The notes below the pieces were generated by a model, which saw only the letters and a list, made by a program, of their open reading frames with translations, was not told where the DNA came from and searched no databases. From the NCBI RefSeq assembly GCF_054482525.1, contig NZ_CM137006.1: DNA of 64,000 bases. One strand, written 5' to 3'. Positions within the stretch are counted from its first letter, which is position 1, and every line of letters begins with the position of its first letter. A program made the position numbers and the translations under genes. Below are positions 7,868 through 62,936 of the stretch, in pieces.

Positions 7868-7998
7868 GGCTGCTCTCCGGCATTGAATGTGTGCAAGCGC
7901 ACCATAATGGTGCGAATTGCCGGCGGGTGTGGTGCGCCTGTCCGGCAGATTAATTTGTCGCAGAACGTCTATTGCTGGCTATCTGTAGGCTGGAACCA

Positions 7999-8038
7999 TC
8001 CCCTCTCCCCTTTGGGGAGAGGGTTAGGGTGAGGGGAA
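7999..8038. repeat. Box C-like intergenic repeat, copy 1
   Basis: tcccctctcccctttggggagagggttagggtgagggg; a near-identical copy lies at 61451-61487. Confidence 0.5.
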
Positions 8039-8071
8039 GCCCCGTCATACCTGTTCAGCAATCTGAACTGA

Positions 8072-9184: not shown

Positions 9185-9534
9185 ATCTCTTTCCTTCTGA
9201 AAGTTCGTTAACAAACGAACAAAAGTTGTCACACTGAAAGATATGCAATAAACGTGCATATTTTTTATCGGCGCGGTGTAAGAAAAGAGAACTCTCTCCC
9301 GGCCAGCACTGCTCGCTATATAAAAGCATCGCAAGAATAACTTTAGCCAGGGTTTGAGACTATAGCTCGGATTAAAAAACGGTATTTAACAAATTTTTAT
9401 GCGTATTTGCTCTATGTGATAAAGCCAAATCGGCACAAGAGAAGTGAAATAATCTTTAAGAAAAGGTTAAAAACAGCAGATAATTTTGCAGCACGCAGTC
9501 ACTGCGGCAGCGACTGCGTACTCGAAAGGAGTTA

Positions 9535-14912: not shown

Positions 14913-14992
14913 GCCACTGCTTTTCTTTGATGTCCCCATTTTGTGGAGCCCATCAACCCCGCCATTTTGGTTCAAGGTTGGTGGGTTTTTTG
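14913..14992 (+). ncRNA. rybB: RybB small RNA (sigmaE-dependent repressor of outer-membrane protein mRNAs)
   Basis: gccactgcttttctttgatgtccccattttgtggagcccatcaacc...ggttggtgggtttttt matches the RybB sequence as I recall it; 3' hairpin plus U tract; lies between ybjL and rcdA as in K-12. Confidence 0.85.
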
Positions 14993-15010
14993 TTGCCTGA
15001 AATTTATCTA

Positions 15011-18067: not shown

Positions 18068-19297
18068 CCCTTCGTGCGAATTTCCCATCTGTTTATCTTT
18101 TAAAAAGATAACCATCAGCAACAGCCACAAAATTCCGTTGACAAGGTTGAAGAGATTAAACAGTCCGTTGCCCCCGTTCAGCCAGGCATGTTTGCTGATT
18201 TCAATACCGACGGTAAAGATCAGCATTTGCAGCATCCCCATCGCCGCAGAAACCGTACCTTTACTCATATCGCTGGCAAACAAGGTTAATCGCACCAGTC
18301 CCGCATTCGCCAGACCAATACCGAAAGCATAAATACTTAACCCGGCGGTCATCCATAAATACGCGTGCGATGAGATAACCGTTGCCGCAGCAGCGACCAA
18401 CAGACCAATCATAATCGGCCAGCCGCCCATAATAATCAGCGAACGTACGGTGCGACGCGAGGTCAGACGCGCTAACAGCAAGTTACCCGCAATTAACGCC
18501 CCGAAAATAGGCACTTGCAGCAAGCCATATTCATAGCTGCTCAACTGCTCACCGGTAATGATGATAATCGGCGACTGAGCGATCCACGCCAGCAACGGCA
18601 GGCTAACGAATCCCAGCGCCAGCGCCCCCGCAACAAAGCGACCGTTCTTCAGCACCAGCTTATAGTCACGACCGAGTTCTTTCAGCGACAGTTTCTCGCC
18701 TATACGCGTGGCGGTTTCAGGCATGGCTCGTTGCAGACCGAAAAAGGAGATCGCTGCCAATGCGGCAAACAAGACAAACATCCCTTCCCAGGGCAGCACA
18801 TGGATCCACGCCGCGCCCACCAGCGGGCCAAGTAGTGGAGCAATCAGCGCCACGTTCGCCATCAGCGCGGTGATCTTGATACAAACCGCCTCTTCGAAGG
18901 ATTCCTGAATTGCGGCGTATCCCACAGCGCCAATGAAACAGAGGCTTATGCCCTGCAAGAAGCGCAACAGGGTGAATTGTTCAATGTTTTGCGCCAGTAA
19001 TATTGCCAGACAGGTGATGATAAACCACACCACCCCCGCCAGCATCACCGGACGGCGACCAATACGATCCGACAGCGGCCCCAGGAGCCATTGTAAAAAC
19101 ATCCCGCCCGCCAGATACGCGGTCATCGAAGTAGGAACCCAATCAATGCCCGCCTGATATTGTTCCACCACGGCCAACATACCGGGTTGAATCATATCGT
19201 TGCCGATATAGGTTGAAAATTCGTAAAGCACCAGACAGAGAGGGAAAAGTAACGCCTGACGTCCAAGCCTGGCACCGGAAGCTAATTTATTTTGCAT
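18065..19297 (-). CDS. mdfA: Multidrug efflux MFS transporter MdfA (Cmr)
   Basis: 410 aa from [12 protein letters not shown]. Confidence 0.9.
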
Positions 19298-19581
19298 GCA
19301 ATTTCTTCGCCAATAATAATCGCGCAAAGTTTAATAAAAGCGCAGCTAACGAGAAAGCGAATTTTGTAGCTGAAACCACGGTTAAGCACATTCTTACATT
19401 ATCGCGAGTATAGCTACGCTTTCTTTAAGTTTTATTTAACCTATGCCCGTTACAATCACCCACCGTAAACAGGCCGCTTGAGGGAAATAAGACGATGCCG
19501 CTTTACCCAGTTTAACCTGCACTTTATTCTCAACGACTTGCCTGTATTGGCTCCCTTTTAATCACTTTGCGTCGGGAAGTT

Positions 19582-21004: not shown

Positions 21005-21716
21005 ATATCCTCCGGCATAGCCGGAGGTTTTTCAAATGCGCCTATAAGGCTCTCTTACCAGCCGCGCCCTAACAGGCGCACACGATCTGACATTTGCATC
21101 CAACTTCGTTACTTACGGCCCGTAAACGGGCTGCCCGGATAGGGAATCGATAACTGCTCTCCCATTTTATCCTCTTCAAGCTGGTGCTTTATGTAATCCT
21201 GTATCTTCGCCGTGTTCTTACCCACCGTATCGACGTAGTACCCTCTGCACCAGAACTCCCTGTTCCTGTATTTGAATTTCAAATCACCAAACTGCTCGTA
21301 AAGCATCAGACTGCTTTTCCCTTTCAGATATCCCATAAAGCCGGATACGCTCATTTTGGGCGGGATCTCCACAAGCATATGGATATGATCTGCACAGCAT
21401 TCAGCTTCCAGAATCCGTACACTTTTCCACTCACACAGCTTTCTCAAAATACTGCCTATTGCTCTACGCTTCTCTCTGTAGAACACCTGTCTTCGGTATT
21501 TTGGCGCAAAAACTATGTGATATTTACAGTTCCATCGGGTGTGCGCTAAGCTCTTTTCGTTCCCCATTGGGACCCCCTTTTGATTTCTTGTTTGACACTT
21601 GCAGTTGCCAGACCGCAAGGTGTTTTAACAAATCAAAAGGGGTTTTAATAACTGGCTTAAAGCTGAAAGCTTTCCGGAACCCCCAGCCTAGCTGGGGGTT
21701 TTCTGTGCACAATAAC
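21005..21716 (-). mobile_element. IS200 insertion sequence (IS200/IS605 family); ends approximate
   Basis: Encodes an IS200 TnpA; upstream of tnpA lie a perfect palindrome (aacccccagcctagctgggggtt, 21678-21699) and a second stem-loop over the ribosome-binding site; fills almost the whole deoR-dacC intergenic space. Confidence 0.8.
21109..21567 (-). CDS. tnpA: IS200 transposase TnpA (HUH/Y1 single-strand transposase)
   Basis: MGNEKSLAHTRWNCKYHIVFAPKYRR...HIHMLVEIPPK... 152 aa, intact. Confidence 0.92.
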   Translation of the reverse strand: MGNEKSLAHTRWNCKYHIVFAPKYRRQVFYREKRRAIGSILRKLCEWKSVRILEAECCADHIHMLVEIPPKMSVSGFMGYLKGKSSLMLYEQFGDLKFKYRNREFWCRGYYVDTVGKNTAKIQDYIKHQLEEDKMGEQLSIPYPGSPFTGRK

Positions 21717-44630: not shown

Positions 44631-45896
44631 ATGGCTTCTACTTTTACCAGCGACACATTGCCTGCCGATCACAAAGCAGCTATCCGTCAGATGAAGCACG
44701 CGCTGCGGGCACAGCTTGGCGACGTCCAGCAGATCTTTAATCAGCTAAGCGATGACATTGCTACGCGAGTGGCTGAAATCAACGCACTCAAAGCACAGGG
44801 CGATGCCGTCTGGCCGGTGCTGTCTTATGCCGATATCAAAGCAGGTCATGTTACTGCAGAGCAGCGCGAACAGATTAAACGTCGCGGTTGTGCGGTGATA
44901 AAAGGCCATTTCCCCCGCGAACAAGCGCTAGGCTGGGATCAGTCGATGCTGGACTATCTGGACCGCAACCGCTTTGACGAGGTCTACAAAGGCCCCGGCG
45001 ATAATTTCTTCGGGACGCTCAGCGCTTCACGTCCCGAGATTTACCCCATCTACTGGTCGCAGGCGCAAATGCAGGCTCGCCAGAGTGAAGAAATGGCGAA
45101 TGCGCAGTCGTTTCTCAATCGTCTGTGGACATTTGAAAGTGATGGAAAGCAATGGTTTAACCCGGATGTGAGCGTCATCTACCCTGACCGTATCCGCCGC
45201 CGTCCGCCCGGAACGACCTCCAAAGGTCTTGGAGCGCATACCGACTCCGGGGCACTGGAACGCTGGCTGCTTCCAGCGTATCAGCGCGTTTTCGCCAACG
45301 TCTTTAATGGCAATCTGGCGCAATATGATCCCTGGCATGCGGCACATCGTACGGAAGTTGAAGAGTACACGGTGGACAACACCACCAAATGTTCCGTGTT
45401 TCGGACATTCCAGGGCTGGACAGCGCTCTCTGATATGCTGCCTGGTCAGGGGCTGCTGCACGTCGTGCCTATTCCTGAAGCCATGGCGTACGTACTGTTA
45501 CGTCCGCTGCTTGATGATGTGCCGGAGGATGAACTGTGCGGCGTAGCGCCCGGAAGAGTATTGCCGGTATCAGAGCAATGGCATCCACTGTTGATTGAGG
45601 CGTTAACCAGCATTCCAAAACTCGAAGCCGGAGACTCCGTCTGGTGGCACTGCGACGTCATCCATTCCGTTGCCCCCGTTGAAAATCAACAGGGCTGGGG
45701 CAACGTGATGTACATTCCTGCGGCACCGATGTGCGAGAAAAATCTTGCCTACGCGCACAAGGTGAAGGCCGCACTGGAAAAAGGCGCATCGCCGGGCGAC
45801 TTCCCGCGCGAGGACTATGAAACAAACTGGGAAGGACGCTTTACGCTTGCCGACCTCAACATTCACGGTAAGCGAGCGTTGGGAATCGACAGCTGA
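44631..45896 (+). CDS. ybiU: DUF1479-family protein YbiU
   Basis: 421 aa from MASTFTSD; synteny. Confidence 0.85.
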   Translation: MASTFTSDTLPADHKAAIRQMKHALRAQLGDVQQIFNQLSDDIATRVAEINALKAQGDAVWPVLSYADIKAGHVTAEQREQIKRRGCAVIKGHFPREQALGWDQSMLDYLDRNRFDEVYKGPGDNFFGTLSASRPEIYPIYWSQAQMQARQSEEMANAQSFLNRLWTFESDGKQWFNPDVSVIYPDRIRRRPPGTTSKGLGAHTDSGALERWLLPAYQRVFANVFNGNLAQYDPWHAAHRTEVEEYTVDNTTKCSVFRTFQGWTALSDMLPGQGLLHVVPIPEAMAYVLLRPLLDDVPEDELCGVAPGRVLPVSEQWHPLLIEALTSIPKLEAGDSVWWHCDVIHSVAPVENQQGWGNVMYIPAAPMCEKNLAYAHKVKAALEKGASPGDFPREDYETNWEGRFTLADLNIHGKRALGIDS

Positions 45897-46966
45897 GTGT
45901 CGTACAGCCCTTCCCGTTCCACGGCGGTGTTCCCTTTTCCTGGGCGAACCCGCCGCACTGACTCCCGCACCGCCAATCGTCCGTGCAGCAGCAGCGAGCC
46001 CACCGGAGCATCCGGGCGAATCAGCCGCTGTTGCAACATTTGCACCGCTTCATTGCCTAGCTCATCGCGTGGCACATGCACAGCCGTCAGGGGAACATCC
46101 TCGATTGCCGCAAGGTTAAAGCCGTCGATACTCATCACCGAGACATCCTGTGGTACGCGCAGACCACGACGATGTAGCGCATTTACCGTTCCCGCCGCCA
46201 TAAAATCCCCGCCGACCAGAAACGCCGTCGGCAACGTCTTGCCATTGGCGGCATCCAGCCACGCTCCGACCTTTTCTTCCGCTTCTTTAGCGCTAAAACT
46301 GCTGATATTCAGCAAATGACGGTCATGGTGAAAGGCCAGATTATGCTGACGCCATGATTCTTTAATCCCTGCAAACCGCTGCTCCATAGTGTAGCGGCGC
46401 AGGCACATCACATTCATCACCTCCCGGTGACCCATTTCAAACAGATAGCGGGCGGCGAACGCGCCAATTAACCGATGGTCCGGCGCAATCGCCGGGAGGC
46501 GCATTCGTTCATCACGGCAGTTGATCAGCACACAAGGCTTAGCGAGATCGGCGGCCAGATCATGGATGTGCGGATCGTCAATCCCCAGCAGGATCGCCGC
46601 CTGCGTATCTGCTTCATTCATCCGCGAGAGAAATAGCGCGGGATCGCTGTCAAACTCCTCCAGCGCGCAGTAACGCAGCCGCACTTCATGCGGCGATAAC
46701 GCTTTGCTGATGCTCTGGATCACACGGTAATAAAAGATATCAGATCGTTGGTCAAAAGCGCGTTGCGGCGCGAAAATAATCAGGTTGTTCAGCAACATAC
46801 GACCTGCTGCCATGCCATCCATCACGCCCAACTCACGCGCGCAGGCCAGCACCTGTTCGCGAGCGCGTGCACTGGTATTCGCTTTGCCAGCCAGCACCCG
46901 CGAAACCGTACTCGGCGATAGCCCGGTACGTGCGGCGATATCGGCGATTTTCAACTTCTTGTCCAT
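45863..46966 (-). CDS. LacI-family transcriptional regulator (accessory; absent from K-12 at this position)
   Basis: N-terminal helix-turn-helix MDKKLKIADIAARTGLSPSTVSRVLAG and periplasmic-binding-protein-like sugar-binding core; 367 aa from ATG 46966; 3' end overlaps the ybiU 3' end by 34 bp. Confidence 0.85.
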   Translation of the reverse strand: MDKKLKIADIAARTGLSPSTVSRVLAGKANTSARAREQVLACARELGVMDGMAAGRMLLNNLIIFAPQRAFDQRSDIFYYRVIQSISKALSPHEVRLRYCALEEFDSDPALFLSRMNEADTQAAILLGIDDPHIHDLAADLAKPCVLINCRDERMRLPAIAPDHRLIGAFAARYLFEMGHREVMNVMCLRRYTMEQRFAGIKESWRQHNLAFHHDRHLLNISSFSAKEAEEKVGAWLDAANGKTLPTAFLVGGDFMAAGTVNALHRRGLRVPQDVSVMSIDGFNLAAIEDVPLTAVHVPRDELGNEAVQMLQQRLIRPDAPVGSLLLHGRLAVRESVRRVRPGKGNTAVEREGLYDTQLSIPNARLP

Positions 46967-47260
46967 TTTGTGATCTGCCTCTAATTCGGAAATGACAGAA
47001 TTTTCATGAGCAAAAAAGCCCATTCTGTCTGGCATTAAATCCATTTCAGTAATGTATATCAGTCACTCATGGAAAAACGTGCACAAAACCCGCTTTCTTT
47101 CGCTTTTAGGGTCTCTTACTGTGAATTGGTAGAACAACTTCCATACAAAAATAATGGAAAAACGAACAATAAAGACTTTATTTATCAAAAAGTTAAAAGT
47201 GGTGTGACAACTCCATTCTGACGTTGCCGCACAAACCCTATACCATTCTGTGGAGTGCAT

Positions 47261-48562
47261 ATGAGTCAGGGTATCAATAACGATATGACTGCCAGTAAAC
47301 CGCGCCATATCGTCAAAAATCTGCGTTGGTGGATACTGGTCCTTTTTTTGCTCGGTGTTACTGTCAACTACATCACGCGTAACTCGCTGGGTATTCTCGC
47401 CCCCGAACTGAAAAGCAGCCTGGGGATTACCACCGAACAATATTCCTGGATTGTAGGTGCTTTCCAGCTCGCCTATACCCTATTCCAACCGTTGTGTGGA
47501 TGGCTGATTGACGTCATTGGCCTCAAACTGGGCTTTATGATCTGCGCGGGACTGTGGGCGCTGGCCTGTCTGATGCATGCGGGGGCGGGAAACTGGGTAC
47601 ATCTGGCGCTGTTGCGCTTCTTTATGGGCGGTGCGGAAGCCGCGGCAACCCCAGCAAACGCCAAAACCATCGGTGAATGGTTTCCAAAATCAGAACGCCC
47701 GATCGCCGCAGGCTGGGCAGGCGTCGGTTTTTCCATCGGTGCCATGCTGGCCCCACCGATTATCTATTTTGCCCACGCTTCATTCGGCTGGCAGGGTGCA
47801 TTTATGTTCACTGGCATCCTGGCGATGCTGTGGGTGGTGCTGTGGTGGGCGTTCTATCACAACCCGGATAAGCATCCTAACCTCAGCAAAGCCGAACTGG
47901 ACTTTATCCGCCAGGATAACGAAGCGCCCCCTGTCAAGTTACCCTTTCTGACCGCACTGAAAACCGTAGGCAAAAATAAACGCTTTTACGGTATCGCTAT
48001 CCCGGCCTTTATGGCAGAACCGGCGTGGGCGGTGATGAGTTTCTGGGTTCCGCTATACCTGTCCAAAACCTATGGCATGGACCTGAAGCAGATCGCATTA
48101 TTCGCCTGGTTGCCGTTCCTCGCCGCTGATCTTGGCAGTATTGCCAGCGGCTATCTGACCAAACTTTACACCCGCCTGTTTGGGCTGAGTCGTGTGAACT
48201 CCGTTGTCGCATCATCGGTCAGTGGCGCATTCCTGATGGTTTCGCTGGCGGTGATGGCCTTTACCAATAACCCGTATATCGCCATCGTCCTTATTTCCAT
48301 CGGCGGCTTCGGTCACCAGATCATCTCCTGCATGCTGAGCGCACTGGTGGTGGAATCCTTCGACAAAGGTCAGATGGCCACTGTTAACGGCATGCGCGGT
48401 TCTGCCGCGTGGATCGCAAGTTTCCTGTTCTCCCTGATTATCGGGGTTACCGCTGACAAAATCGGCTTTACCCCCCTGTTTATCGCCATGGGCTTCTTTG
48501 ACCTGATTGGTGCTTTCTTCCTGGTCACCTTTATTGCTGAACGTCGCGCAAAACGCGCCTGA
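47261..48562 (+). CDS. MFS transporter of the anion:cation symporter family, ExuT-like (accessory)
   Basis: About 40% identity by eye to E. coli ExuT across the N-terminal half (LAPELKSSLGITTEQYSWIVGAFQLAYTLFQP...); 12-TM MFS; start ATG 47261 or GTG 47255. Confidence 0.85.
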   Translation: MSQGINNDMTASKPRHIVKNLRWWILVLFLLGVTVNYITRNSLGILAPELKSSLGITTEQYSWIVGAFQLAYTLFQPLCGWLIDVIGLKLGFMICAGLWALACLMHAGAGNWVHLALLRFFMGGAEAAATPANAKTIGEWFPKSERPIAAGWAGVGFSIGAMLAPPIIYFAHASFGWQGAFMFTGILAMLWVVLWWAFYHNPDKHPNLSKAELDFIRQDNEAPPVKLPFLTALKTVGKNKRFYGIAIPAFMAEPAWAVMSFWVPLYLSKTYGMDLKQIALFAWLPFLAADLGSIASGYLTKLYTRLFGLSRVNSVVASSVSGAFLMVSLAVMAFTNNPYIAIVLISIGGFGHQIISCMLSALVVESFDKGQMATVNGMRGSAAWIASFLFSLIIGVTADKIGFTPLFIAMGFFDLIGAFFLVTFIAERRAKRA

Positions 48563-48576
48563 GAGTGGATGTAAAC

Positions 48577-50940
48577 ATGAAAACGCTGAAAAACTGGACC
48601 CTGCACAAACAGTCTGCCCACCACGTTGAACTGCTGGTCGATGGCCAGCATATCCTGTGCCTGTACGTGCTGGAAGAAAATCTGTTCCGCGTGCTGTTAA
48701 AACGCAAAGGCGAGCTGGCGCTGGATCGCACCTGGAGCATTGCTCCGGCGCAGGATGTGCCATGGGAAGGGCGCAGCCGCGAAGATCTCAGCGGCTTTAG
48801 CCTGCCCGCGTGGACATTGATCCAGCACGACGACACCGTGGTTATCGCCACCGAGTCACTGCGTGCCACCGTTCACCAGCCGCTGTGGCTGGAGTGGCAC
48901 TATCGTAACAACGAAGGCGAATGGCTGCCGTTGGTGAATGACCGCCCGACCAGCGCTTATCTGCTGAATGCCCACGGCGACGGCGTGGCGCACTATCAGA
49001 GCCGTCGTAAAGATGAACGCTTTTATGGCCTCGGAGATAAAGCCGGCGACCTGCAACGCAACGGTAAACGTTACGAGATGCGTAACCTCGACGCGATGGG
49101 CTACAACGCCGTTAGTACTGACCCGTTGTACAAACACATTCCATTCACCATCACCCGCCGCGATGACATTAGCTTCGGCCTGTTTTATGACAACCTCAGC
49201 AGCTGCTGGCTGGATCTGGGCAACGAGATCGACAACTACCACACCGCCTATCGCCGCTGGCAGGCGGAAGCGGGTGATATCGACTACTACCTGTTTACCG
49301 GCGAACGCGTACTTGATATCACCAAAGCCTTCGTACGCCTGACCGGAAAAACCCTGTTCGGACCGAAATGGAGCCTGGGCTACAGCGGTTCAACTATGCA
49401 CTACACCGATGCGCCGGACGCACAAAATCAGTTGATGAACTTTATCCGCCTGTGTGAAGAACATGCGATTCCCTGCGATTCGTTCCAGCTCTCTTCCGGT
49501 TATACCTCAATTAACGGCAAGCGCTATGTGTTCAACTGGAATTACGACAAAGTGCCGCAGCCGAAAGTGATGAGCCAGGCATTTCACAATGCTGGTTTGC
49601 ACCTGGCCGCCAATATCAAGCCGTGCCTGTTGCAGGATCACCCACGCTATAACGAAGTGGCAGAAAGAGGACTGTTCATCCGTGATTCAGAAACAGATGA
49701 ACCAGAACGTTCCAGCTTCTGGGATGACGAAGGTTCTAACCTCGACTTTACTAATCCGCAGACCATACAGTGGTGGCAGGAAGGCGTGACCACACAGCTT
49801 CTGGAGATGGGTATCGACTCCACCTGGAACGACAACAACGAATTCGAAGTGTGGGACGGTGAAGCACGCTGTCACGGCTTTGGTCAGACGATCGCGATCA
49901 AACATATTCGCCCGGTGATGCCACTGCTGATGATGCGAGCCTCGATGGAAGCCCAGCAACGTTTCGCTCCGGAAAAACGTCCGTACTTGATCTCCCGCTC
50001 CGGCTGCGCGGGAATGCAGCGCTATGTGCAGACCTGGAGCGGCGATAACCGCACTAGCTGGGACACTCTGCGCTACAACACCCGCATGGGTCTGGGGATG
50101 AGCCTCTCCGGGCTGTATAACCTCGGTCACGACGTCGGCGGTTTCTCCGGTGATAAGCCGGACCCGGAACTGTTTGTACGCTGGGTACAAAACGGCGTGA
50201 TGCATCCGCGCTTTACGATTCACTCATGGAACGATGACCATACCGTAAACGAACCGTGGATGTATCCGGGTGTCACTCCGGCGATCCGCAGCGCTATTGA
50301 GTTGCGCTATCGCCTGCTGCCCTACTTTTATACCCTGATGTGGCAGGCATACGCCGATGATGAACCAATGCTACGTCCGACTTTCCTTGACCACGAGCAC
50401 GACGTTCAGACTTTTGAAGAGTGTGATGACTTCCTGCTTGGTCGCGATATTTTGGTTGCCAGCGTCGTAGAGCAAGGCGAGCGCCAGCGCCGTGTATGGC
50501 TGCCAGATAACGAAACTGGCTGGTACGATTTCTACAACGGCGAATGGTTCAGTGGCGGTCAGTGGATCACCCTCGACGCACCGCTGGAGAAACTGCCGCT
50601 GATGGTGCGTGCCGGGGCTGGTCTACCGCTCAGCAAACGCATCACCTATGTGAGCGCAGAACAAGACGATACCCGCGAACTGAAACTGTTCCCGCTGAAA
50701 GGTGTGGGCACAACGTCCGGCCTGCTGTTTGAAGACGATGGCGAAAGCTGGGGCTACCAAACTGGTAATGCGCTTTGGGTGGAATGGGAAATGGTTTGCG
50801 ATGGGGCGACCATCAACCTGAAAGTCAACGCGCGCGGGGATTATCGTCCTGCATGGAGTGCACTGAAAGTGTCATTACCAGTGGAAGAAAAACGCACGCT
50901 GCTGGTCAATGGTGTTGAAGGGAGTGAATGGATGCGTTAA
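48577..50940 (+). CDS. Glycoside hydrolase family 31 alpha-glycosidase (accessory), specificity unknown
   Basis: GH31 motifs: nucleophile region STWNDNNEFE, acid/base region QTWSGDNRTSW and GHDVGGF; 787 aa from ATG 48577; 14 nt after the transporter stop (operon). Confidence 0.85.
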   Translation: MKTLKNWTLHKQSAHHVELLVDGQHILCLYVLEENLFRVLLKRKGELALDRTWSIAPAQDVPWEGRSREDLSGFSLPAWTLIQHDDTVVIATESLRATVHQPLWLEWHYRNNEGEWLPLVNDRPTSAYLLNAHGDGVAHYQSRRKDERFYGLGDKAGDLQRNGKRYEMRNLDAMGYNAVSTDPLYKHIPFTITRRDDISFGLFYDNLSSCWLDLGNEIDNYHTAYRRWQAEAGDIDYYLFTGERVLDITKAFVRLTGKTLFGPKWSLGYSGSTMHYTDAPDAQNQLMNFIRLCEEHAIPCDSFQLSSGYTSINGKRYVFNWNYDKVPQPKVMSQAFHNAGLHLAANIKPCLLQDHPRYNEVAERGLFIRDSETDEPERSSFWDDEGSNLDFTNPQTIQWWQEGVTTQLLEMGIDSTWNDNNEFEVWDGEARCHGFGQTIAIKHIRPVMPLLMMRASMEAQQRFAPEKRPYLISRSGCAGMQRYVQTWSGDNRTSWDTLRYNTRMGLGMSLSGLYNLGHDVGGFSGDKPDPELFVRWVQNGVMHPRFTIHSWNDDHTVNEPWMYPGVTPAIRSAIELRYRLLPYFYTLMWQAYADDEPMLRPTFLDHEHDVQTFEECDDFLLGRDILVASVVEQGERQRRVWLPDNETGWYDFYNGEWFSGGQWITLDAPLEKLPLMVRAGAGLPLSKRITYVSAEQDDTRELKLFPLKGVGTTSGLLFEDDGESWGYQTGNALWVEWEMVCDGATINLKVNARGDYRPAWSALKVSLPVEEKRTLLVNGVEGSEWMR

Positions 50941-51119
50941 ATCATTACCGGGGCCGGGAGGCGACTGCGCCTTACCCGGTCAAGCCATCGAATCCTTTAC
51001 CTCAGTATTTCACGCTGCAGGAAGGCAGCAAACCTGTAAACCCCGGGAGCTTAAATAAGTAAGTGACCGGGGTGAACAGGTGAAGCCAATGCATCTGCCG
51101 CATGAAAGACGGCGGGAAA

Positions 51120-52715
51120 TTAACCGTCGATCCCTTTACTACGCAGGTAATCTTCGTAATTACCGCTAAAGTCGATCACGCGTTCCGGGGTGATTTCCAG
51201 AATGCGGGTCGCCAGGGAGCTTACAAACTCACGGTCGTGAGAAACAAAGATCAGCGTGCCCTGATACAGTTCCAGTGCCATGTTCAGCGACTCAATGGAT
51301 TCCATATCCAGGTGGTTGGTCGGTTCGTCCATGATCAGAATGTTCGGCTTCTGCATCATTAACTTACCAAACAGCATCCGCCCTTTTTCTCCACCGGAAA
51401 GCACTTTCGCTGGCTTTTTGATGTCGTCCTGGCTGAACAGCAAACGACCGAGAATGCTGCGTACCGCCTGCTCGTCATCGCCTTCCTGCTTCCACTGACT
51501 CATCCATTCGAACACGGTCAGATCATTTTCGAACTCATATTCGTGGTCCTGGGCGTAGTAACCAATGCGCGCGTTTTCAGACCATTTTACGGTGCCGCTG
51601 TCCGGTTGCAGATCGCCCACCAGCGTTTTCAGCAGCGTTGATTTACCGACGCCGTTGGTACCCAGTACCGCCAGTTTTTCACCGACTTCCAGCAGCAGGT
51701 TGAGATTTTTAAACAGTGGACCGTTATCAAACCCTTTGGTCAGACCTTCCACTTCCAGCGCGTTACGGAACAGTTTCTTATCCTGTTCAAAACGGATGAA
51801 CGGATTCTGACGGCTGGAGGCTTTCACCTCTTCCAGTTTGATTTTATCAATCTGGCGCGCGCGCGAAGTTGCCTGGCGAGATTTCGAGGCGTTGGCGCTA
51901 AAGCGGCTAACGAAAGATTGCAGCTCAGCAATCTGCGCTTTCTTCTTGGCGTTATCGGCCAGCAGACGTTCACGCGCCTGGGTCGCCGCCGTCATGTACT
52001 CATCGTAGTTACCCGGATAAACGCGCAGCTCGCCGTAATCCAGATCCGCCATGTGGGTACAAACCATGTTAAGGAAGTGACGGTCGTGCGAGATGATGAT
52101 CATGGTGCTGTCACGCTCGTTCAGCACCTGTTCCAGCCAACGAATGGTGTCGATGTCGAGGTTGTTGGTCGGTTCGTCGAGCAGGAGAATGTCCGGATCA
52201 GCAAACAGCGCCTGCGCCAGCAGCACACGCAGCTTCCAGCCAGGAGCAACTTCACTCATCGGGCCGTAGTGCTGTTCCACTGGAATTCCCACGCCAAGCA
52301 ACAGTTCACCGGCGCGAGCTTCCGCAGAGTAACCGTCCATTTCGCCGTATTTCACTTCCAGATCGGCCACTTTATAGCCGTCTTCTTCACTCATTTCCGG
52401 CAAAGCATAGATGCGGTCACGCTCCTGCTTCACTTCCCACAACTCTTTATGCCCCATGATCACCGTATCCAGCACAGTGAACTCTTCAAAGGCAAACTGA
52501 TCCTGACGCAGCTTACCAATGCGCTCGTTGGGATCGAGGGAAACGTTACCCAACGTCGGCTCTAAGTCGCCGCCGAGGATCTTCATAAAGGTGGATTTAC
52601 CACTACCGTTCGCGCCAATCAGGCCGTAACGGTTGCCGCCGCCGAATTTGACGGAAATGTTTTCAAACAACGGCTTACTGCCGAACTGCATGGTGACGTT
52701 ACTGGAAACTAACAC
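51120..52715 (-). CDS. ybiT: ABC-F family ATPase YbiT
   Basis: About 530 aa; two ABC cassettes ([18 protein letters not shown]) and no membrane domain. Confidence 0.9.
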
Positions 52716-59475: not shown

Positions 59476-59510
59476 TTCTGCATGGTTATGCATAACCATG
59501 CAGAATTTCT
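59476..59510 (+). terminator. Terminator downstream of rhtA
   Basis: Perfect palindrome ttctgcatggttatgcataaccatgcagaa followed by tttct. Confidence 0.65.
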
Positions 59511-59621
59511 CGCTACTTTTCCTCTACAGCATCTTTATATATCGAATTATGCAAAAGCATATTTATTCCGAAAATTCCTGGCGAGCCAATAAATAAGAAT
59601 TGTTCTTATCAATATACCTAA

Positions 59622-60269
<648 letters not shown>

Positions 60270-60496
60270 ATCCATCGCTGATGGTGGAGAACTTTAGTAC
60301 CCGATAAAAGCGGCTTCCTGACAGGAGGCCGTTTTGTTTTGCAGCCCACCTCAACGCACTTATTTAGTGCATCCTTCTGCTATCCCCAGCTGATTAAGTA
60401 AATTTTTTGTATCCACATCATCACACAATCGTTACATAAAGATTGTTTTTTCATCAGGTTTTACGCTAAATAATCACTGTGTTGAGTGCACAATTT

Positions 60497-60535
60497 TAGC
60501 GCACCAGTTTGGTGCCCCAGAATGGTGCATCTTCA
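60497..60535 (+). promoter_or_regulatory. Candidate NtrC-binding sites upstream of glnH
   Basis: gcaccagtttggtgcc and an adjacent tggtgca-like half-site resemble the NtrC consensus TGCACC-N5-GGTGCA. Confidence 0.5.
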
Positions 60536-60602
60536 GGGTATTGCCCTATAAATCGTGCATCACGTTTTTACCGCATCTCGATAAATCAATGAGTTGCAAA
60601 AC

Positions 60603-60618
60603 TGGCACGATTTTTTCA
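60603..60618 (+). promoter_or_regulatory. sigma54-type promoter (glnHp2-like)
   Basis: TGGCAC-N5-TTTCA about 55 nt upstream of the glnH ATG. Confidence 0.6.
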
Positions 60619-60657
60619 TATATGTGAATGTCACGCAGGGGATCGTCCCGTGGATAG

Positions 60658-61419
<762 letters not shown>

Positions 61420-61450
61420 TAACGCTACGCCTGTAAGGCGCACTGGCAGT

Positions 61451-61487
61451 TCCCTCTCCCCTCTGGGGAGAGGATTAGGGTGAGGGG
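61451..61487. repeat. Box C-like intergenic repeat, copy 2
   Basis: tccctctcccctctggggagaggattagggtgagggg; near-identical to 7999-8038, same orientation. Confidence 0.5.
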
Positions 61488-61557
61488 CGCAAACCCGCTC
61501 CGGGGCCATTAATTACCCTGAATTTGATTATTTACACCACGGTAACAGGAACAACAT

Positions 61558-62217
61558 ATGCAGTTTGACTGGAGTGCCATCTGGCCTGCCATTCCGCTTC
61601 TGATTGAAGGTGCCAAAATGACCCTGTGGATTTCAGTCCTCGGTCTGGCTGGCGGTCTGGTGATCGGATTGCTGGCAGGTTTTGCACGCACCTTCGGTGG
61701 TTGGATAGCCAACCACGTCGCGCTGGTCTTTATTGAAGTGATCCGCGGCACACCTATCGTCGTCCAGGTGATGTTTATCTACTTTGCCCTGCCGATGGCG
61801 TTTAACGACTTACGCATCGACCCGTTTACTGCGGCGGTGGTCACCATCATGATCAACTCCGGCGCGTACATTGCGGAAATCACGCGTGGTGCGGTGCTGT
61901 CTATTCACAAAGGTTTTCGTGAAGCAGGACTGGCGCTCGGTCTTTCACGTTGGGAAACCATTCGCTACGTCATTTTACCGCTGGCACTGCGTCGTATGCT
62001 GCCGCCGCTGGGTAACCAGTGGATCATCAGCATTAAAGACACCTCGCTGTTTATTGTTATCGGCGTGGCGGAACTGACCCGTCAGGGGCAAGAAATTATT
62101 GCCGGAAACTTCCGCGCCCTTGAGATCTGGAGCGCCGTGGCGGTGTTCTATCTGATTATTACCCTGGTGCTGAGCTTTATTCTGCGTCGTCTGGAAAGAA
62201 GGATGAAAATCCTGTGA
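61558..62217 (+). CDS. glnP: Glutamine ABC transporter permease GlnP
   Basis: 219 aa. Confidence 0.92.
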
Positions 62218-62936
62218 TTGAATTTAAAAACGTCTCCAAGCATTTTGGTCCAACCCAGGTGCTGCACAATATCGATTTGAACATTGCTCAGGGCGAAGTC
62301 GTGGTGATTATCGGGCCGTCCGGTTCCGGTAAATCGACCCTGCTGCGCTGCATCAACAAACTGGAAGAAATCACCTCCGGCGATCTGATTGTCGATGGCC
62401 TGAAGGTTAACGATCCGAAAGTTGACGAGCGCCTGATTCGCCAGGAAGCGGGTATGGTGTTCCAGCAGTTTTACCTCTTCCCGCATCTGACGGCGCTGGA
62501 AAACGTCATGTTTGGCCCGCTACGCGTGCGTGGCGCGAACAAAGAAGAGGCGGAAAAACTGGCGCGTGAGCTGCTGGCGAAAGTCGGCCTGGCAGAACGC
62601 GCTCACCACTACCCTTCCGAGCTTTCTGGTGGTCAACAGCAGCGTGTGGCGATCGCACGCGCGCTGGCGGTGAAGCCGAAAATGATGCTGTTTGATGAAC
62701 CGACTTCCGCTCTTGACCCGGAACTGCGCCATGAAGTGCTGAAGGTTATGCAGGATCTGGCTGAAGAAGGGATGACGATGGTGATCGTGACACACGAAAT
62801 CGGTTTTGCCGAGAAAGTAGCTTCGCGCCTGATCTTTATCGACAAAGGCCGGATTGCGGAAGATGGCGATCCGCAGGTGTTGATCAAGAACCCACCGAGC
62901 CAGCGCTTGCAGGAATTTTTGCAGCACGTCTCTTAA
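62214..62936 (+). CDS. glnQ: Glutamine ABC transporter ATP-binding protein GlnQ
   Basis: 240 aa; GTG start overlapping the glnP stop; Walker [10 protein letters not shown]. Confidence 0.92.

Follow-up and report, generated by a model that had tools for sequence, protein, structure and literature searches.

The glnHPQ control region

At its 3′ end the window (the whole stretch of DNA that was analysed, 64,000 nucleotides) carries ompX on the minus strand, rhtA and dps, the last of which ends at 60269, followed by glnH, glnP and glnQ on the plus strand. This stretch is collinear with ompX-rhtA-dps-glnHPQ of Escherichia coli K-12 MG1655, in reversed orientation. The features recognized between dps and glnQ are listed below; positions with a sign are relative to the glnHp2 transcription start unless another promoter is named, and conservation is throughout the fraction of sequences identical to the window base in an alignment of 37 sequences (the window and 36 other Enterobacterales glnH loci).

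60407-60428, no strand assigned: degenerate CRP site of glnHp1, ttgTATCCacatcaTCACAcaa, centred at -61.5 relative to p1; the string is quoted in PMC1865078 and occurs verbatim in the window
60467-60472, plus strand: likely -10 element of glnHp1, TAAATA, its position inferred from the CRP site in PMC1865078
60500-60516, no strand assigned: putative NtrC (NRI) site, CGCACCAGTTTGGTGCC, centre 60508 (-122), 2 mismatches in 12 to TGCACC-N5-GGTGCA
60513-60529, no strand assigned: putative NtrC (NRI) site, TGCCCCAGAATGGTGCA, centre 60521 (-109), 1 mismatch in 12, identical to K-12
60542-60559, no strand assigned: dyad TGCCCTATAAATCGTGCA (TGC-N12-GCA), centre -79.5, block conservation 0.57-0.71 against a background of 0.41
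60584-60596, plus strand: predicted IHF core, AATCAATGAGTTG, an exact match to WATCAANNNNTTR centred at about -40, between enhancer and promoter
60603-60618, plus strand: glnHp2 sigma54 promoter, -24 TGGCAC and -12 TTTCA, identical to K-12
60630, plus strand: glnHp2 transcription start (+1), from the published primer numbering (PMC1865078)
60630-60655, plus strand: stem-loop GUCACGCAGGGGAUCGUCCCGUGGAU at the 5′ end of the p2 transcript, minimum free energy -8.8 kcal/mol, z = -1.1
60662-60667, plus strand: glnH Shine-Dalgarno sequence AAGGAA, read from the sequence, conservation 0.91
60673-61419, 61558-62217 and 62214-62936, plus strand: glnH, glnP and glnQ, the operon driven by the promoter, from open reading frames and the collinear K-12 annotation

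The sigma54 element reported in the preliminary description was read exactly where it had been placed: TGGCACGATTTTTTCA occupies 60603-60618 on the plus strand, with TGGCAC at 60603-60608, the five-base spacer GATTT at 60609-60613 and TTTCA at 60614-60618. The -24 hexamer contains the GG doublet, which is kept in 37/37 aligned sequences. Against the -12 consensus TTGCW the element has the fixed 5-bp spacing exactly and matches at four of five positions, with T in place of the consensus G, and the same deviation is found in the experimentally confirmed K-12 and Salmonella sites (conservation 0.98). The promoter lies on the glnH strand with its start 43 nt before the ATG at 60673. This start was located using the PCR fragment of PMC1865078, which covers -289 to +63 of glnHp2 and whose primers map to 60341 and 60692 in the window, giving +1 at 60630; the ChIP-seq convention (motif centre + 19) puts it at 60629. 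It has been reported that glnHp2 depends on sigma54 and phosphorylated NtrC (NtrC-P) (PMC1865078), and it has been described as weak, with IHF bound to it naturally. The non-consensus -12 sequence TTTCA agrees with the published account of a weak promoter in need of IHF.

The TGCACC/GGTGCA dyads noted earlier upstream of this element proved to be two real, overlapping 17-mers, but their hexamers are approximate: the half-sites read cGCACC (60500-60505) and GGTGCc (60511-60516) in one, TGCcCC (60513-60518) and GGTGCA (60524-60529) in the other, and an exact TGCACC was found in none of the upstream dyads. The 17-mers overlap by 4 bp and, with +1 at 60630, their computed centres fall at -122 and -109, so that the pair supplies the two or more 17-bp dyads resembling TGCACCA-N3-TGGTGCA, about 100-150 bp upstream of +1, that were looked for in an enhancer. 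Claverie-Martin and Magasanik reportedly placed the glnHp2 NtrC sites at -109 and -122 in 1991, and the geometry computed here gives the same numbers. A third NtrC-like 17-mer, TGCACAATTTTAGCGCA (60487-60503, centre -135, 3 mismatches), was rejected as it is not conserved (left half 0.27 against a background of 0.41), and it is probably not functional.

Between the NtrC pair and the promoter, the position of the predicted IHF core is kept as AAAACAAnnnnTTG in most Enterobacteriaceae. The primers of a glnH amplicon used for IHF ChIP-qPCR (PMC8407004) bracket 60521-60626 of the window, and published work on K-12, citing a footprint, states that looping at glnHp2 requires the IHF bend.

Farther upstream lies the sigma70 promoter glnHp1. 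A -35-like hexamer, TTGTTT, is present at 60444-60449, 17 bp upstream of TAAATA, and the -10 block GCGCTAAATA is conserved at 0.79 across Enterobacterales. Adding 61.5 to the centre of the CRP site gives a glnHp1 start at about 60479, 151 bp upstream of the glnHp2 start, and the NtrC sites therefore fall in the early p1 transcribed region. A generic scan of the spacer for sigma70 promoters and terminators called no promoter, glnHp1 included, and returned only a spurious minus-strand terminator-like hairpin; the failure to call glnHp1 agrees with its reported weak, CRP-dependent binding. A hairpin followed by a T-run just after dps (60307-60342) was missed by a simple terminator scan and gave only sub-threshold Rfam matches (ctRNA_p42d, STnc70); it probably serves as the terminator of dps.

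Comparison with K-12 and published binding data

Set beside the annotated K-12 promoter, the locus agreed exactly: glnHp2 of K-12 does not lie elsewhere, and the earlier assignment of the site to the glnHp2 architecture was borne out by the 17-mer, its coordinate and the NtrC geometry. Window positions 60602-60618, CTGGCACGATTTTTTCA (a 17-mer consisting of TGGCACGATTTTTTCA with a 5′ C), are identical to the sigma54 ChIP-seq motif string OS06, which is assigned to glnH, has its motif centre at 847290 (U00096.2) on the minus strand, has 44 bp between its predicted start and the gene and is listed as experimentally confirmed in EcoCyc (PMC4591121); sigma54 overexpression raised glnH expression in the same study. 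For NtrC, a K-12 ChIP-seq peak at 847261-847341 is assigned to glnHPQ, and gSELEX peaks at 847362 are recorded for RpoN holoenzyme (74%) and NtrC (87%); the NtrC ChIP-seq and gSELEX peaks fall within ~100 bp of the -109 site. Coordinates in NC_000913.3 and U00096.2 are offset by 777 bp. Position 60610 of the window is 63 bp upstream of the ATG, and the K-12 ATG at 848004 (NC_000913.3), or 847227 (U00096.2), places the equivalent position at 847290, an exact match to the motif centre. The gSELEX table in the supplement of PMC8743547 gives the glnHPQ RpoN motif as CTGGCACGATTTTGTCA, one base off the CTGGCACGATTTTTTCA of K-12 and the window, which is probably a typographical error.

Two further motif strings from PMC4591121 occur in the window, ATGCACGTTTATTGCA at 9244-9259 on the minus strand (OS08, potF) and TGGCGAAGAAATTGCA at 19297-19312 on the minus strand (OS07, in the ybjG/mdfA spacer and assigned to rcdA); with OS06, OS07 and OS08 all present, the window has three published sigma54 sites. 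Away from glnHp2, the window's best NtrC-like palindrome is CGCACCATAATGGTGCG at 7898-7914, in the spacer between potF and potG and 31 bp ahead of the start of potG, a position that fits the strong K-12 NtrC gSELEX peak between these two genes.

The window shares with K-12 glnHp2 the dps-glnHPQ context, the -24/-12 17-mer, the NtrC and IHF consensus positions and the distances between them, and differs from it by seven single bases in the 403-bp dps-glnH spacer (60287, 60375, 60385, 60508, 60570, 60582 and 60590), all of them at non-consensus positions. The spacer is 98.3% identical to that of K-12 and 100% identical to that of strain SCU-102, which identifies the window as coming from a non-K-12 E. 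coli.

Conservation within E. coli and across Enterobacterales

Of 5426 complete E. coli genomes, 5421 have the 403-bp spacer, and the core 40-mer at 60596-60635 is identical in 5309 of them (98%). A 42-mer over the NtrC sites is identical in 1950 complete genomes and one base off in most of the other 3461, the group to which the K-12 strains (A at 60508) belong; the two alleles therefore represent a common polymorphism.

Beyond E. coli, a contig scan anchored on a 10-residue glnH coding peptide, and hence independent of the promoter, returned 120 loci. Where GlnH identity was at least 83%, TGGCA[C/T]-N5-TTTCAT was found ~160 nt upstream of the anchor in nearly all loci, and NtrC-like 17-mers at -122 and -109 in most. 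The genera with the promoter include Escherichia, Citrobacter, Enterobacter, Kluyvera, Cedecea, Kosakonia, Serratia, Yersinia, Pantoea, Erwinia, Hafnia and Edwardsiella. Conservation by element in the 37-sequence alignment was as follows.

-24 hexamer: 0.93
-12 TTTCA: 0.98
NtrC half-sites: 0.78-0.90
NtrC spacers: 0.45-0.56
IHF TTR: 0.90
IHF WATCAA: 0.68, mostly AAACAA elsewhere
Unassigned spacer background: 0.41

Averaged over the sigma54 and NtrC consensus positions, conservation was 0.88, compared with 0.50 in the remaining spacer (Mann-Whitney p = 3e-12). The putative NtrC sites, present at -122 and -109 in most Enterobacteriaceae, thus show conserved position, constrained half-sites and free spacers among orthologous promoters: the -122 site has half-sites at 0.78-0.86 and a spacer at 0.45 and keeps its position in most Enterobacterales loci, and the right half of the -109 site, GGTGCA, is conserved at 0.90. 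At 0.98, the conservation of TTTCA indicates that the non-consensus T of the -12 box is an ancient, maintained feature.

In Salmonella Typhimurium, sigma54 binds the glnH site (STM0830), TGGCATGATTTTTTCATT, and expression of the operon depends 7.1-fold on rpoN. This promoter shares the TTTCAT -12 box, sigma54 binding and rpoN-dependent expression with that of E. coli, but its -24 element is TGGCAT rather than TGGCAC, a variant present in many genera. The architecture is not universal in the order: at the Pectobacterium and Brenneria glnH loci (L052, L075, L045; ~90% protein identity) no sigma54 or NtrC motifs were found within ~0.9-1.2 kb upstream, and this lineage appears to have lost the promoter or replaced it, as judged from these upstream regions. 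Pseudomonas loci had no such promoter within the 450 nt scanned.

Two additional features of the region emerged from this comparison. TGC-N12-GCA occurs exactly at -79.5 in 14/37 sequences and is seldom seen elsewhere (17 in all), and the strict TGC-N11-GCA form of the -109 site, found in 13/37, is as frequent. The -79.5 dyad is 1 bp longer than the NtrC 17-mer, lies 30 bp from the -109 site and has an NtrC-like right half, cGTGCA. Our best guess is that it may serve as an auxiliary NtrC site of low affinity, comparable to the extra ones at glnAp2; possibly it is a site for another regulator. Two other assignments of this block were discarded: a CRP site, for which TGTGC-N6-TGACA is present in Enterobacter but not in E. 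coli or Citrobacter, and part of the IHF site, as it lies 25 bp beyond the core.

At the start of the p2 transcript, the GGGG...CCCC of the leader stem-loop is kept in Enterobacteriaceae, and in Erwiniaceae hairpins of unrelated sequence are found at the same place in the leader, with z down to -3.6. RNAalifold applied to 25 leaders yielded a consensus stem of just 3 bp, as hairpins this divergent fail to align, and alignment-based covariation was weak; the hairpin is accordingly drawn from per-sequence folds. A search of 59500-61700 against Rfam, with E up to 1, gave no match in the glnH leader. Plausibly, the predicted hairpin at +1 stabilises p2 mRNA and, if so, the stability of p2 mRNA could differ from that of p1 mRNA. 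Neither the dyad nor the stem-loop was traced in the literature covered, which left out the original footprinting study. It is rather unlikely that the two are functional parts of glnHp2 so far undescribed, and either may already be documented.

Interpretation of the locus and its alternatives

The elements between 60500 and 60630 almost certainly constitute the glnHp2 promoter of a non-K-12 E. coli, through which nitrogen regulates the glutamine ABC-transporter operon glnHPQ, as indicated by the identity of the elements with those of K-12, by their geometry and non-random arrangement and by their conservation, all of which were observed directly. In this strain, as extrapolated from the K-12 literature, sigma54 RNA polymerase would form a closed complex on the -24/-12 element (60603-60618). 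When nitrogen is limiting, NtrB would phosphorylate NtrC, and NtrC-P would then occupy the overlapping -122 and -109 sites and oligomerise. IHF bound at about -40 would bend the DNA such that NtrC-P contacts the polymerase, and ATP hydrolysis by NtrC-P would open the promoter, with transcription starting at about 60630. The separate, CRP-assisted sigma70 promoter glnHp1 would read through the NtrC sites. Binding, activation and looping in this account come from published work or are presumed to apply here by analogy.

Related systems share parts of this arrangement. E. coli glnAp2 likewise combines a tandem sigma70 p1 and sigma54 p2 with CRP input and a pair of NtrC sites over 100 bp upstream of p2, but its NtrC sites, at -140 and -108, do not overlap and it needs no IHF, whereas glnHp2 is weaker and naturally IHF-bound. 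At Klebsiella nifH and Pseudomonas Pu looping is also aided by IHF, which bends the DNA between enhancer and -24/-12 element; there the activators are NifA and XylR, and glnHp2 differs in that its predicted IHF core directly adjoins the promoter, at ~-40.

Taken one at a time, the motifs are unremarkable in 64 kb, as would be expected if they had merely come together by chance in an AT-rich spacer with no regulatory role. The sigma54 pattern with up to one mismatch matched once in the 64 kb (2.17 expected) and the NtrC pattern with up to two mismatches four times (3.64 expected), neither count standing above the shuffle expectation; the IHF core pattern matched seven times in the window against 2.7 expected, and for this reason a core match alone is weak evidence. 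The arrangement, however, is not random: of 2000 dinucleotide-preserving window shuffles, only one had a sigma54 match preceded on the same strand by two or more NtrC-like sites centred 60-200 bp upstream. The elements are conserved in position from genus to genus, with half-sites kept and spacers variable, and they are identical to experimentally bound K-12 sites, which leaves the probability of a chance co-occurrence practically negligible, and conservation together with the literature identity effectively refutes it. If the motifs are functional, the NtrC sites might still act mainly as an operator or roadblock for glnHp1 and not primarily as an enhancer for p2, as they would occupy about +22 to +51 of the p1 transcript and the glnHp1/p2 pair has been described as architecturally like glnAp1/p2, whose NtrC sites overlap p1. 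The two roles are compatible, but an enhancer role is required both by the sigma54 and IHF elements, which are conserved and keep a fixed spacing to the NtrC sites, and by the published NtrC-P dependence of glnHp2 (PMC1865078), making a mainly operator function very improbable.

A promoter that is present but altered in this strain is about as improbable. Of the seven spacer differences from K-12, three lie within or close beside the NtrC and IHF sites and could suggest such a change, but they are at degenerate positions. The base at 60508 (T here, A in K-12) sits at the centre of the spacer in the -122 NtrC site, that at 60590 belongs to the N4 stretch of the IHF core, and 60582, an A/T exchange, is in the flank two bases before the core. 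Moreover, the NtrC-region allele of the window occurs exactly in the 1950 complete genomes noted above, and a strain-specific impairment appears unlikely from these sequence comparisons.

Several further features of the window were observed. Approximately 5.2 kb absent from K-12 (45884-51126) stands in place of 257 bp between ybiT and ybiU and encodes a LacI-family regulator, an MFS transporter and a GH31 glycosidase; by its predicted gene content it looks like an accessory sugar-utilisation island. Between dacC and deoR, ~0.7 kb likewise absent from K-12 (21005-21711) is an IS200-type element, whose Y1 transposase reading frame is at 21109-21618 on the minus strand and which accounts for an Rfam STnc490 match at 21577-21700. 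A short interspersed repeat (ccctctcccc...ggggagaggg...gtgagggg), which we take to be BoxC-like, follows potF (7948-8069) and glnH (~61430-61510), with the copy between potF and potG adding ~110 bp not present in K-12. Rfam detects the RybB sRNA gene at 14916-14994 on the plus strand (104.8 bits), in its expected place adjoining rcdA/ybjL.

The glnHp2 promoter is already known, and its description here, in textbook form, is correct but ordinary. The proposal that the locus is conventional and can serve as an internal control was judged appropriate: a textbook enhancer-dependent promoter was recognised correctly from raw sequence, and a conventional locus provides a control background against which anomalies elsewhere in the window can be judged. 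What the comparison across species adds is that the TTTCA -12 box is fixed across most Enterobacterales families, and that the overlapping geometry of the -122 and -109 sites is equally fixed.
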